Shown one piece after another: positions 5,684 through 61,060 of a stretch of DNA of 64,000 nucleotides (the stretch's first letter is position 1; every line of letters begins with the position of its first letter). This stretch comes from Eledone cirrhosa (taxonomy: Eukaryota). The DNA lies in assembly GCA_964016885.1 (NCBI GenBank), contig OZ024742.1, positions 247,566,001 through 247,630,000 on the forward strand. The letters run 5' to 3'. The notes under the pieces were generated by a model. The model had not been told where the DNA came from. It searched no databases and worked only from the letters and a program-made list of their open reading frames with translations. The position numbers were made by a program, and so were the translations under genes.

Positions 5684-5957
5684 AATTGAATAAACAAGAG
5701 AGATGAACACTAATATAAACATACATGTCTTCGAATCGTAAGGATTAGGTTAGCTAGGGTGAAAAAATACCAACTACAGCAATATGCTGTAGTTAGTATT
5801 TTTTCACCCTAGCTAACCTAATCCTTACGATACAAACACATGTATGTTTATATTAGTGTTCATCTCTCTTGTTTATTCAATTGTATTACACAACTCGGAA
5901 AAGCTTTTTTGTTAGAGCTATTTAATTGTAAGAGACTACTCTGAGTTCCTAACTCAC
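5684..5957 (+). mobile_element. Fold-back insertion in (TA)n (~100-bp arms plus 3' tail)
   Basis: 5684-5780 is the near reverse complement of 5786-5882; unique tail to 5957; (TA)n on both sides. No intact HHR seen. Confidence 0.75.
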
Positions 5958-7164
5958 TATATATATATATATATATATATATATATATATATGCATATAT
6001 GCATTCGTGCGTGTGTGAATCTGCATGTGTGTTTGCATTGTCCCTGTCTGTGTGGGAATGTGTATGTGTGTGTGAAATAGATGACGTACAAATGTTCCTC
6101 ACTGGAATGGGTAGTAGAGACTAAATATTAAAAACATTCTAAACAGACTAGTACTATTTGATCCTTGTTGCAACTTGAATACATAATAGCTGTCGCCAAC
6201 TAACTTTTATACACACATTTGCACGCACACACACAGACACACATACATGCACACATTCATACCCAGACTCACACATACATACCTACACACAAACGCACAC
6301 ATACACACACTCAATCACCCACCACATATACACATATATATGTGATATATTCCAGAATTTTAAAGGTATCGGTTTTGATGTAAATTTTAATGACTTGTCT
6401 GATTAATCCTTGATTGACCTGGTCATGAATTACTGATTAGTTTTTAACCAATTGCTATCGAACTGTGGCAATATTACATCTTCAAATGTTATTTCCTAGC
6501 ATGTTTATCACGTATTTAAACGATGCAGTGACATATATTACGCGCAGTGCTTCTTCCCCTGTAACGTTATCCCTCTAGATATTCCTTCTTTACTCAGGCG
6601 TTAAATTACAGCTGTTCATCTATCCATCCGTAGCCCCTGAGTTCTGTCTGCATTATAAAGGGCAAATGTGTATGATCTTATCGATTTCACAAATCCCCAC
6701 CCCACAGACCAAACTGTAAGGCAAAACTACAAATTCCTAAAATGCATCGAAGCTTAACCCCTATCTTGAATCTCCGTCCGTTTTCACGACGTGTTCCAGC
6801 TGTTCTAAAACAGGAAGTTAACGTCGAAGCTGCTGAATACTCTACAAATAGTTTGATCCTTGACGTAGATCTTAGGGAGAATTATTGCTACAAAATGTCT
6901 TGTATCGTTGATCATGTGAAGTACCAATGCAATTCACGTTTTGCAGCTAAATGGATTGGCAATAATATATCTTGCTCAAAAACATGCCACGTCATCCTGT
7001 CCAGTAATCAAACGTACGATATTGCGATGATGAACTGAATACTTGATAGTTTCTCAAACTTTTGCCCCCACCCCCCCCCACAAGATACTCTGACCACCAC
7101 CTGACCCTATTTCTAGAGAGAACTGTCTATACGGAAATTGTAAATAATAATTTACATATAATAA

Positions 7165-7343
7165 ATAATTGTTTCTACTTTAGGCACAAGGCCAGCAATT
7201 ACCCAGTACATTACTGGTACTTTATTTTATCGACCCCGTAAGGATGAAAGGCAAAGTTAACCTCGGCGGGATTTGAACTCAGACTGTAAAGAGACGTAAC
7301 TATGCTAGAAAGCATGGCGTCCAACCCTCTACCGATACTGCCA
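7165..7343 (-). mobile_element. tRNA-head SINE, same family as 4856
   Basis: Reverse complement of family sequence (TTTATCGACCCCGTAAGGATGAAAGGC...GGGATTTGAACTC). Confidence 0.8.
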
Positions 7344-9619
7344 AAATGTGTATCATTTGATATTTGATATAATATTATATCATATATACCACCACTCCAA
7401 CGCCTCACTACGCCATAGCACCCTCTGGACCTTCTCAACACCCATCAGGGGCCGGTAGCGTCCACTTTGAGAACCTCTGCTTTACGTTAATCCACGTGCC
7501 TTTACCTCAGATAACCTGACAACGATATAACAAGCTTAGACATTTCTAGAATATGTCGTATAACCCATATACATTTCTTTGAAGATAAATCTAAAAGATT
7601 TCGACTCTGATGTAAAGTAATACATTGAGTAGTTCAACATCTCCGTTAAGTATTAATTCTCGAGTAATGTACAGGTTCTTTGAGATGCTGATTCCGAAGA
7701 GCTTCAAACGTTTTACATATATACTTGTAAGTATTCGTTATTACTGATAAATATTTTCCCCGAAATATATCTGATCAGATCCCTAATTGATAACTAAACA
7801 ACATGTGATAACCATGACAACAACTTTTATTGGTAGAACACTGAAGACGAAGATCGGAATCTACTAAATTAGCTGAGTGTTTTCCATAACATGAATAAAT
7901 TCTGCTTTCCCATTTCCCAAGAACACCTGGATTCAGCCAGAGTCAATAGTGACACCCCAATACGGTCGCTTGATCTGCAAGTAATAGCAGACAAATGCTT
8001 CTCAAATCTCAAACAAAAAGTTACTAATATTAAGTGGCATATTAGATATTGTACTTTCCTATATACAAAAAAATTGACGGTCGTTGTTGTACCAACTTTA
8101 ATCATAGCTGAAAGCCATTTAAGCAGACCTAGAAATAAAAATGTTTCCTTGGGTTTTATACCTTAGTGAAATCCGGAAAATACAAAATCAGTGTTTCCAT
8201 ACAGTTTAGCTCATTTCAAGGCTCATCCAGCAAAACGATGATGAAAGCGTTCCTGCCATGATCTTTCCCACATAATAGTTTCAAACAACAAGGCGTACAT
8301 TATATAACTGTACTTTTTTTATAATATAGCGACGTGTGATTTGAGGGAAATTTGGCTGCTATTCCTAAAGACCTCTTCGGTGTGTGTTTATATATTCATT
8401 TAATACAATAAATTCTACCCTTCATTTTGACAGTTCGTAAATATAAGGTACTTTTTAAATGGGAATTGGGCAGGGGGGAATAGAATGATGAATGTGAAGT
8501 CTTTGAAATTATGTTTCGTTCAAGAGAAATTTATGGCAAACAAGAAGTCAAATTGATTCAATTGAGAATCGAACGCGACTCCAACAGATTTCAAATCGAT
8601 TCATTTCTGCGGCAGATTTCAAACATATGTTTCCACACCATCTTAATGTTAAGAAATGACACACATACACACAGACATACAGAGGGAATAGACATACAGA
8701 GGGGGAGAGAGTATCTTCACAACAAGCACAAACTTGGACACACACACATGCATACAGAAATATAAACATATATACCTACACACACACACACAATCACTCA
8801 CATACATACACATACACACACACACACACAGTGTGTCACCTCACAACAATTACCATCCTTTATACACCTCACAATGAATCTGCTGCAGGGTACAATGTGA
8901 GATATGTCGGAAAACTTTTCAAGAAATCGAATCATAGGATGCAAAATAAATCAAAACCACCAAAACCAAAACAACAGCAACGAGTTTAAATAAGAACAAG
9001 TTCAAACAAAGCTATCTTCAGCGAAACAACAATAACAACAATAACAATAACAAAAACAACACCAACAACATTATCAACAACAACAAAAATAACAATAATA
9101 CAATCTCAATAACAACAACAACATAACAACAAAACTATCAACAGTAATCACAAGAACACCAGCATCAACCACATTGATAGGAAAATCATTTGAAACAAAG
9201 ATTGTTTCAGTTTAGTTAGATTAAGTAAAGTTTGCAAGAGTTTCCTTGCCTGTTTGGATATAACCCAAAAGATAAGTTACCTTGAGGGTCTCTAGACTTC
9301 TGAATGTGACAAGCAGAAGTTAGTAAAACGATGGAATATGCCGATGGAATGGTGAGCAACTGATATCTCAACGATTTTACCAATTTTACCAGTCTTGTCT
9401 CGAAGAAACTGCGCAATATATAACAATGCGGTAAGGCATATACAAACATACATACGCACACCCACATACGTAAAGACACACACACATACACACACACACA
9501 CATATATATATATATAATCATACATATATATACCTATACATACGTGCATACATACATACAATCACACACGCATTCATATATGTAGATCCATAAATACGGA
9601 CTTACGTATTCATGGATGT

Positions 9620-10329
9620 ACGATTTATGTAACATCAGCATCTTTCATAATGTTATCCTCATATATGTATATAGTTATGCATGCATCCGTGTATGTATGT
9701 ATGTATTTTTTTTCTCGCGCAATGGCCATACTCGATAACGAGGGGGCAGCCATCATGTATGTATATATGTATTTATTTATATATTTACGTATGCATGTTG
9801 GTATGTCTCTATATATGTATGTATGAATGTATGTATGTACGTATTTATGAGTGTATATAAAAATGTGTGTGTGTGTGTGTATGTATATATAAATATGTGT
9901 TCGTATGTACGTATCCATGAATACGTGCGTATGTACGTATCCATGAATACGTGCGTATGTACGTATCTATGAATACGTACGTATCCGTGAATACGTGCGT
10001 ATGTACGTATCTATGAATACGTACGTATCCATGAATACGTACATACGCACGTATTCATGGATACGTACATACGCACACATATTTATACACACACACACAC
10101 ACACACACACACACATTTTTATATACACTCATAAATACGTACATACATACATTGATACATACATATATAGATATATACCAACATGCATACGTAAATATAT
10201 AAATAAATACATATATACATACATACATACATACATGCATACATACATACATACATACACGCATGCATGCATACATATATATATATATGAGGATAACATT
10301 AAGAAATATGCTGATGTTACATGAATCGT
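9620..10329. repeat. Long imperfect inverted repeat with central 24/16-bp minisatellite
   Basis: ~9620-9935 is the reverse complement of ~10038-10329 (ORFs 9625- and 9995+ give near-identical peptides). The centre is GCGTATGTACGTATCCATGAATAC repeats. Confidence 0.8.
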
Positions 10330-59892: not shown

Positions 59893-60374
59893 ATCCTCTG
59901 TCGACGCTGGAGCGAAGACCACGACCAGCATAAACACAGGTAATACCATCAGGAGCAACATCAGTAGCAATTCCACCACCAACTTTAGCGACCCAGGGAG
60001 AAAACAAGGAGAACTCCCCACCCCCCAAATACACACAATGACACAAACACAAACAAAAACACAACACGCAGGCACAGATACACTTACAGACAGACTTACA
60101 GACACAGACACCTTGACTTGCAGTAGCGAAGACGAGTCAAACATAAAGGAAAGAAAAAAAAATGGCACACAAAAACACCCACACATCACACACATAGAAA
60201 ATGCAGACAGCACACACATAACAAACACAATCACTTCCGAAACAACACTTCTCTTCATTCTACTAATTGTATTTTTTTCTTTCGCAAAGAAACTGCATAT
60301 ATATATATATATATATATATATATATATATATATATATATATATATATATATATATATATATATATATATATAT

Positions 60375-60797
60375 GTAGGAGGTGAGTTTTATTGTAGTAC
60401 AATAAAGCAATGCAGATATCGGATAAGAAGCACTCTACAGTTTGTAGGACTGGAGTATACATAATATAAGATCAAAAGATGGTTAAAGGAGTTCCATGTA
60501 TTTTATTATGCGCATTTCAAAAACAAACATCATCATGCAATAATATTTGTGTTTTCATCAGATAAAACAGGAGAACATGATATGAAGGCTAAAAAACACT
60601 TGTGGATAGTACAGTTTTAAATCAACATATGTTGATTTAAAACTGCACTATCCACAAGTGTTTTTTAGCCTTCATATCATGTTCTCCTGTTTTATCTGAT
60701 GAAAACACAAATATTATTGCATGATGATGTTTGTTTTTGAAATGCGCATAATAAAATACATGGAACTCCTTTAACCATCTTTTGATCTTATATTATA
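60375..60797 (-). mobile_element. Loop-less 336-bp palindrome with HHR in each arm plus tail, in (TA)n
   Basis: 60461-60628/60629-60796 with one mismatch seen; unique tail 60375-60460. Confidence 0.88.
60681..60766 (+). ncRNA. Type I hammerhead with long helix II (mirror copy 60491-60576 on -)
   Basis: TTTTAT-CTGATGA(60696)-AAACACAAATATTATT GCAT GATGATGTTTGTTTTT-GAAA-TGCGCA-TA-ATAAAA. Helix II pairs with G-U; helix III is palindromic TGCGCA; AUA triplet; outer GTTC/GAAC pairing. Confidence 0.75.
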
Positions 60798-60852
60798 TAT
60801 ATATATATATATATATATATATATATATATATATATATATATATATATAAAT

Positions 60853-61060
60853 GTATGACCCCGACGGCAGAGCTCAAGCCGTTTCGACGGCTATTTCTAG
60901 ACTAAATTAGAATTCTAATTGAGTCCAGAAATAGCCGTCGAAACTGCTTGAGCTCTGCCGTCGGGGTCATACTTTTTCCTATTACCCACTCTACTACCCT
61001 AAGTATTGAGTACTCTGGTGCGTTATGGTCCATCTGGTTCCTTACCACAATTCGTTCGTT
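60853..61060 (+). mobile_element. Fold-back insertion, family of 17678
   Basis: Arms 60853-60912/60913-60972; tail is the reverse complement of 17678-17760. Confidence 0.8.

Follow-up and report, generated by a model that had tools for sequence, protein, structure and literature searches.

Insertions of Penelope-like elements (PLEs) leave a recognizable footprint. The pseudo long terminal repeat (pLTR) of the element may be found in inverted orientation, with a tail optionally present on one side (Arkhipova 2013, PMC3846280), or else an inverted 5'-truncated copy is seen, which often bears a tail of 30-40 bp at one end (Craig et al. 2021, PMC8557442). Hydra and Naiad elements were described as targeting (TA)n, the mechanism being called open (PMC8557442), and a PLE protein was shown in vitro to cut and extend both strands of the target, starting at two internal RNA sites which bound the genomic tail (PMC11167929). 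The layout as such, i.e., inverted pLTR, one-sided tail and TA targeting, and the two start sites of reverse transcription have therefore been published already (Arkhipova 2013; Craig 2021; Frangieh 2024). Besides, recently active Penelope families were reported in an octopus genome (PMC13282606), pairs of hammerhead motifs on opposite strands, 100-700 bp apart, were reported in 2014 (PMC4209133), and tandem hammerhead arrays were derived from PLEs in a recent preprint on retrozymes (bioRxiv 10.64898/2026.07.22.740005). Here we analyze twelve inserts of this kind in a 64,000-nt stretch of the Eledone cirrhosa genome (contig OZ024742.1, positions 247,566,001-247,630,000, hereafter the window). 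What these copies add to the described layout is the pairing of two fixed ends in 48 of 52 two-armed insertions, tail-less arms that are frequently the longer ones, and TA microhomology at the start sites.

The window has an AT content of 66% and is rich in microsatellites; the whole genome comprises 3.0 Gb. The inserts counted are ten fold-backs and two tandem arrays, which had been interpreted in a preliminary description of this DNA as asymmetric palindromes lying in (TA)n. All of them were recovered by self-BLAST of the window after masking of microsatellites, and an inverted arm was found to close each of the two arrays (Table 1). The TA setting was confirmed as well: in 10 of 11 inserts tested, a TA run of at least 12 nt was located within 25 nt of both ends (the exception is 60850, with a right-side TA run of only 5 nt), as compared to 2.4% of random intervals of equal lengths (n=20,000) at a laxer threshold of at least 8 nt at both ends. 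The inserts are indeed mostly unrelated, as was supposed previously, since they represent 11 families, and only 17678 and 60850 belong to the same one (90% identity); the two arrays resemble each other over 37 nt only.

Fixed ends, variable centres and pairing of the arms

Tail-side queries were used to collect 30 loci per family, while the ends of other families were read from incidental copies. In what follows, the end of the tail is referred to as the distal end and its start as the internal end. The length of the tail appeared to be fixed in each family, being about 81 nt in family A, 53 + 14 nt in family B, about 68 nt in family C and 76 nt in the family of 5684; two fixed 3' ends were also revealed in incidental copies of 12630, 36058, 57531, 60375 and array 1. 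The distal/internal pairs are located at -1/-80 in family A, -1/-66 in B, -1/-55 in E, -1/-62 in F and -1/-82 in the family of 60375, so that the two sites are about 40-95 nt apart in most families, and the tail of 35360 comprises about 150 nt; these tails exceed the 30-40 nt described before (PMC8557442). Nearly all of these ends are followed by (TA)n, and TA microhomology of 1-8 nt was detected at the start sites, reaching at least 3 nt at 11 of 16 sites against a background of 9.9%. The tails, previously regarded as unique, thus proved to be family-fixed and to represent the interval between two fixed start sites. Searching the genome with the 60375 tail gave 0 candidates, which is uninformative on rarity; the copies of 60375 came from neighbours in other loci.

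The centre of the palindrome, where the two arms meet, varies from less than 100 to more than 600 nt from the tail end and lies kilobases away in long copies. The tail-bearing arms extend in the 5' direction to between -93 and -694 in the 60850 family, from -111 to beyond -560 in that of 12362 and from -129 to -700 in that of 37265. Two fixed 3' ends together with a varying centre rule out miniature inverted-repeat transposable elements (MITEs), in line with the preliminary description; a single fixed centre with symmetric termini was not observed, the centres being variable and the ends asymmetric.

To avoid selecting for tails, pairing of the ends was counted in loci picked by open reading frame (ORF) or upstream queries, many of them extended, and loci biased towards the centre of the 60850 copy were kept out of both centre and pairing counts. 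Among the two-armed insertions thus collected, 48 of 52 paired one distal and one internal end (p 6.5e-11 against 0.5), comprising 23/23 clear pairs in family E, 10/11 in F, 7/7 in A and 8/11 in B. Of the 39 loci of family E, 3 were ambiguous and 13 had a single arm; these were excluded from the count, as were the loci of families A, B and F without a second end in view and 2 of 30 family-F matches that were not extended. In sets that were mostly tail-selected the mixed share comprised 59/64 in family A and 23/27 in B, and single ends of the distal and internal types occurred at similar rates in families A, B and E. The layout is the same as that described for inverted pLTRs with a tail (PMC3846280, PMC8557442), except that most copies here consist of the two ends only and that their distal/internal pairing is near-strict, the tail being 'optionally' or 'often' one-sided in those accounts. 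The strict rule was not found stated in the literature searched, which included few subscription papers and none of the PLE reviews of 2005-2006.

In family E pairs, the tail-less arm reached further in 13 of 23 cases, the tailed arm in 9, with one tie (no p-value is claimed), and the tail-less arm was also the longer one in L208, L212, L174 and L180. As the tail-less arm is often longer, neither of the family-E arms is routinely copied from the other. The two arms of one insertion share non-majority bases, with 25 in family E against 1.8 expected between copies, and 67 against 16 in family B.

Centre junctions of family E displayed an overlap of 0-5 nt in 14 of 20 cases and 1-24 extra nucleotides, several visibly templated, in 6 of 20. 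In families A, B and C many arms with a tail end close together, namely immediately 5' of the hammerhead core in C (-134 to -122, 17/30) and B (-143 to -129, 17/30) and at about -146 to -130 in A, where the commonest stop base, aside from a query-biased peak at -150, is -139 (23/152). In families A and C, a TATA-like box precedes the stop site by 30-31 nt. G at position -1 was found in 9/22 (C), 15/63 (A) and 4/21 (B) arms ending near the stop site, and in 0/26, 2/67 and 0/34 read-through copies of the same families, respectively. Run-off from a transcript begun inside the pLTR is a plausible explanation of short copies; an internal pLTR promoter is known in Drosophila Penelope (PMC2377424). 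A 3' splice acceptor may also lie at the family C stop site, although no common upstream exon was seen.

As a separate candidate, the hammerhead cleavage site was tried as the position of the centres and rejected, since in family C the core is located at -128 and the arms extend past it in the upstream direction, to about -134. A locus of unusual structure, L186:1693-4578, contains an internal/internal insertion followed directly by a distal/distal palindrome of the same family. Single-armed family-E copies in L288, L289, L306 and L312 adjoin inverted unrelated retroelement sequence, which was labelled by motif as RTE-like, as another PLE, as a family-A arm having a TA end of its own, and as CR1-like; such foreign sequence would mean that a second RNA was captured during insertion or that a deletion occurred later. 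Across the loci examined different PLE families adjoin in the same TA tracts, i.e., the tracts serve as shared landing sites.

Penelope-like element families and hammerhead motifs

The supposed linkage to PLE ORFs was found for 6 of 12 inserts, or 5 of 11 families, which comprise three Hydra-clade families (A, B and C) and two of the Neptune/Nematis type (E and F), the clade labels being assigned by motif. An ORF with reverse transcriptase (RT) and GIY-YIG endonuclease (EN) domains is contiguous with the repeat in families A, B, E and F. The spacer of 37265 (family B) encodes the C-terminus of the endonuclease; a query with this protein gave 57,411 candidates in the genome, and open frames of family B found elsewhere comprise 585-628 aa and contain RT. 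An upstream walk from family A led to a full pLTR-ORF-pLTR copy at G000:C4:772019-775686 (L217) with direct pLTRs 3048 nt apart, while the pLTRs are inverted in L219, L220 and L185. Families A and B carry the Hydra motifs, as read in L183-185 and L217 against the list in PMC8557442, namely DKT, the CxCx5C linker, CxxC and CxH around E and N, and no CCHH; the RWK-like motif RWR was seen in family A only, as the frames of family B start downstream of it. In three loci, family C follows a third Hydra-type ORF, from which it is separated by a microsatellite-rich gap; this link is weaker, and the 12362 insert is the pLTR of a probable Hydra-clade PLE. In families E and F the ORFs run directly into the arm sequence and, judging by the translations, encode a CX4CxxC linker and a C-terminal endonuclease with CCHH; the family F protein matched Pfam RVT_1 (PF00078) and GIY-YIG (PF01541) above cut-offs. 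A PDB sequence search of the Hydra proteins gave no match, and a large protein search revealed 946 relatives, nearly all of them unnamed. ORFs sought between paired matches of the 5684 family were those of other families only.

Families A, B and probably C share with the published Hydra-clade PLEs (PMC8557442) the C-terminal EN, DKT, the linker, (TA)n targets and a length of about 3 kb, differing from them as new families with tails of 67-81 nt instead of 30-40 nt. The same motifs are present in the alignment rows of the (TA)n-targeting Hydra-1_Obim (PMC8557442 supplement), compared by eye only. The hammerhead, called universal in that clade (PMC8557442), is represented in family B by the core with helices I and III, whereas family A is without the core. 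Similarly, E and F share with Neptune/Nematis PLEs (CX2-5CxxC linker, CCHH; PMC8557442) the C-terminal GIY-YIG, the linker, CCHH and microsatellite targeting, but in family E DKG is replaced by DKS and Pfam gives no match, and family F is without a hammerhead core. Altogether, PLE origin of the inserts is very highly probable. The diverse PLE-derived community in (TA)n that had been proposed is indeed a multi-clade one, with at least two clades and retrozyme-like arrays.

The CUGANGA..GAAA core with helices I and III was detected in 6 of 12 inserts (both arrays, 12362, 35360, 37265 and 60375), at least five whole or partial hammerheads having been noted in the preliminary description; in the window copy of 12362 the 5' strand of helix I is lost at the fold-back. 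Among window copies, a stricter three-helix test, passed by 0 of 2600 shuffled sequences, was passed by array 2 and 60375 only; among longer copies it was passed by the 5684 family (2/3 long copies) and by family E (57531), in which the hammerhead is situated about 245 nt upstream of the tail end. Families B and C, array 1 and 35360 received the looser call only, 36058 has the core only, and in family F (12630) the core was not found. Rfam returned weak HH9 matches below the gathering score for both arrays and no hammerhead match for 60375 and 37265; for the whole window no hammerhead occurred among the matches listed (150 of 339), all of which were sub-threshold microRNA (miRNA) or snoRNA matches on microsatellites and hairpins. 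None of six hammerhead candidates had a significant z-score when folded for minimum free energy. Since the strict test passes few copies and Rfam matches are weak, sub-gathering or absent, the ribozyme assignments are motif-level ones.

In both arrays two or more units follow one another in tandem, each with a type I hammerhead motif, which is one of the features of non-LTR retrozymes. Tandem units with a type I hammerhead each are known in animal non-LTR retrozymes (bioRxiv 10.64898/2026.07.22.740005; PMC4209133), and units of 310-500 nt with such a motif likewise make up the arrays and the 5684 family; the arrays differ from them in following the rule of distal and internal ends and in bearing a terminal inverted arm. 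Five of the six inserts without an ORF link have a hammerhead motif in the window or in longer copies, and such ORF-less hammerhead-bearing inserts are likely to be non-coding PLE dependants. The putative hammerhead of the 5684 family (unit of about 500 nt; loci L096, L105 and L097) may cleave as a monomer, because its helix III consists of 7-8 bp, unlike that of most animal hammerheads. Solo hammerhead-like motifs were noticed in other repeats at 62954 (+), 63873 (-) and 43690 (-), the first of them with helix I of 7 bp and a palindromic helix III.

Possible routes to two-ended insertion

Considering these data, we favour, with moderate confidence, the view that the inserts are 5'-truncated PLE families, together with their likely dependants, in TA repeats, whose two fixed ends result from priming by both nicked strands, one per site. 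That two independent priming events took place is quite probable in itself, while a single shared RNA as template for both of them is an even question. The GIY-YIG endonuclease would nick both strands of (TA)n, and each nicked 3' end would pair over a few bases with an AU stretch of the RNA. One RNA would likely serve both primers, with the internal cDNA being displaced by the distal one in the region of overlap. Priming near the 5' end of the transcript, with the cDNAs running off, would be the likely source of short palindromes, and the two cDNA 3' ends would then be joined, likely by microhomology-mediated end joining. A single RNA would explain the exclusion of distal/distal and internal/internal pairs, because each site is usable once. 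In its complete form, this proposal implies an obligate twin priming in two registers on one RNA, with cDNAs that often run off the capped 5' end of a transcript begun in the pLTR and with end joining that closes the palindrome, and it is put forward tentatively, as slightly less than an even chance. The 100%-identical units of array 1 would fit displacement synthesis on circular or multimeric RNA; unequal recombination could also make them.

In the twin priming of L1, an inverted 5' segment arises because one target supplies two primers, the second of which anneals far upstream, and the two cDNAs barely overlap. In the copies studied, by contrast, the two start sites are fixed and separated by 40-95 nt, and both cDNAs cover one and the same stretch. 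Of the twin-priming-like process suggested in the preliminary description, the use of two primers from one target is supported, while the likeness to L1 does not extend to the arms. The priming of cDNA by both cut strands, suggested there too, is supported by the longer tail-less arms and by in vitro target-primed reverse transcription with the PAc Poseidon protein (PMC11167929), where both strands are cut and extended, two RT starts define the tail and the targets are AT-rich.

A number of observations weigh against the proposed route. The presence of the TA tract before insertion is assumed: target-site duplications are hidden by (TA)n and hence unreadable, and no empty site was seen. In the Poseidon experiments, as far as they are described in PMC11167929, the start sites had no homology to the cut DNA, no bulk difference between the strands was observed and pairing per molecule was unresolved, in distinction from the TA microhomology found here. 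Four exceptions to the mixed pairing (L351, L169, L186 and its neighbour), all of them symmetric, are found among the 52 unbiased pairs, and in several long pairs intervening TA tracts or nested insertions are possible. In family E, 13 of 39 loci have no homologous second arm, several adjoining unrelated inverted retroelements, and the centres are unclustered. No TATA box is present at -30 in family B, and the excess of G is only suggestive of a cap signature, as the opposite arm could supply the same base. The shared-variant figure of family A (100 against 31) is inflated by alignments running through the centre, and shared variants in general fit equally well two RNAs of one locus or later gene conversion. 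As for the PLE affiliation, the hammerhead core was found in 0/30 long copies of family A, Pfam misses the Hydra-family and family-E proteins, and no ORF link was found for 5684, 35360, 36058, 60375 and arrays 1 and 2.

Two RNAs of one source locus might serve instead, on which both strands prime, the geometry of a protein dimer setting one subunit per site. An asymmetric dimer of this kind fits the data nearly as well: it accounts for the distal/internal pairing and the shared variants, an AlphaFold dimer prediction and two-strand extension are reported in PMC11167929, and the symmetric pairs and the arms abutting foreign retroelements show that a second template is usable. Nevertheless, we consider it rather unlikely, as the asymmetry needs an extra rule, whereas one RNA supplies it unaided, and arms of different subfamilies are rare; the symmetric L019 has visibly different arms, as expected if two RNAs make the symmetric exceptions.

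Less probable still is single distal priming with the cDNA folded back and copied, or with both arms distal, followed by trimming at the internal AT-rich site by the endonuclease. The TA-like internal sites might be cut by the endonuclease, the arms share variants, and EN-mediated resolution was proposed as the origin of the tail by Craig et al. (PMC8557442). Yet where the tail-less arm is the longer one (13/23 family-E pairs, L208, L212, L174, L180), it cannot have been copied from the tailed arm, single-armed copies terminate at either site, and both boundaries of the tail are RT start sites in vitro (PMC11167929). A version in which two distal cDNAs are made and one of them is trimmed afterwards may still hold.

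Tracts of (TA)n are unstable, and some of the loci are rearranged, so single insertions might have been mirrored later, when the TA tract slipped during replication or a cruciform in it was repaired. This is very improbable, since host repair would not halt the mirror arm at one family-specific base, which is also the end of single-armed copies, and fixed internal ends are present in every family represented by more than a few copies. Finally, the inverted repeats bordered by TA might suggest DNA transposons, TA-targeting MITEs among them, in which one end has decayed. These are hardly worth considering given the variable centres, the fixed asymmetric ends, the hammerhead motifs and the RT/GIY-YIG ORF continuity, which contradicts them for the five ORF-linked families, and a real terminal inverted repeat (TIR) element in the window (37913-38538) differs in look.

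The inserts of the window and their significance

Table 1. Inserts in the window (positions in the window; arms and their identity according to self-BLAST)
Insert	Positions	Strand	Inverted arms (identity)	Description
Array 1	1..2689		2353-2689	About 10.6 identical 310-nt hammerhead-bearing units and a 337-nt inverted arm; distal end left, internal end right, tail about 41 nt
5684	5685..5957	+	5685-5881 (94%)	Palindrome and 76-nt tail
12362	12362..12546	-	12430-12545 (96%)	Tail about 68 nt and palindrome, fold-back at hammerhead core; family C
12630	12630..12976	-	12695-12976 (96%)	Tail about 62 nt and palindrome; 3' end of Neptune-type PLE, family F
Array 2	14461..16302			3.4 units of 470 nt, hammerhead per full unit, 205-nt inverted arm, tail about 58 nt
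17678	17679..17873	-	17763-17871 (95%)	Tail about 81 nt and palindrome; Hydra-clade family A, as 60850
35360	35358..35970	-	35509-35970 (95%)	Tail about 150 nt and palindrome; hammerhead-like core 35590 (-)
36058	36060..37003	+	36060-36900 (85%)	Old palindrome and tail about 95 nt; two fixed family ends
37265	37266..37897	+	37264-37377/37732-37846 (94%, with spacer)	5'-truncated Hydra-clade PLE, family B; inverted arm 37266-37377, endonuclease C-terminus 37375-37603, then pLTR with hammerhead core at 37779, then tail (67 nt in the family; last 14 nt absent here)
57531	57531..57706	-	57589-57706 (98%)	55-nt tail and palindrome; young Neptune/Nematis-type PLE, family E
60375	60375..60793	-	60464-60793 (99%)	Tail about 82 nt and palindrome; hammerhead per arm, 60561 (-) and 60696 (+)
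60850	60850..61060	+	60850-60975 (94%)	Palindrome and tail; Hydra-clade family A, family tail 81 nt

Array 1 begins 930 nt to the left of the window, in (TA)n, and about 3 of its units are located outside. Short templated inserts are present at the turn of array 2 (about 16038-16098). The family of 5684 is composed of tandem units of about 500 nt, with a full hammerhead motif upstream of the centre of the window copy, and a single further copy of the 35360 family was seen.

Several other features were noted in the window. A third family-A insert (21172-21524) is represented by a tailed arm, a TA/TG tract and a separate 58-nt tail fragment. Two structures beyond those listed in the preliminary description are an old inverted pair (71%) between TA tracts (38844-39427) and a short asymmetric inverted pair with the CUGANGA..GAAA motif on the minus strand (40472-40555). 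The TIR element mentioned above is truly symmetric, with 117-nt terminal repeats (95%), and follows directly after the 37265 tail as a MITE-like contrast. At 10912-11131, inverted 81-nt arms face a central (TA)28, their polarity being opposite to that of the inserts. At 21590-29617, a 4-kb block occurs on either side of a 200-N gap (25415-25614), the two copies matching at 99.7%; this is probably an assembly or haplotype artefact. A long degenerate AAC/ACC tandem repeat (52011-54677) contains open frames with Pro/Thr or Asn/Gln runs.

Taken together, these elements are unremarkable representatives of known clades, and their insertion grammar is the known PLE footprint. Formation of inverted repeats and the bias to microsatellites were named among the open questions of PLE transposition by Craig et al. 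2021 (PMC8557442); models of PLE integration are constrained by the pairing in 48 of 52 insertions, the longer tail-less arms and the TA microhomology. The stubs of PLEs are easily misfiled as MITEs, short interspersed nuclear elements or microRNA hairpins, and Rfam gave many sub-threshold miRNA matches here. Families with thousands of candidate copies represent a large source of perfect hairpins in this genome. If the proposed route is true, one rule would operate across the Hydra and Neptune clades and the retrozyme arrays, and, if the priming in two registers is true, one-sided tails, inverted pLTRs and thousands of genomic hairpins would be the outcome of one reaction.

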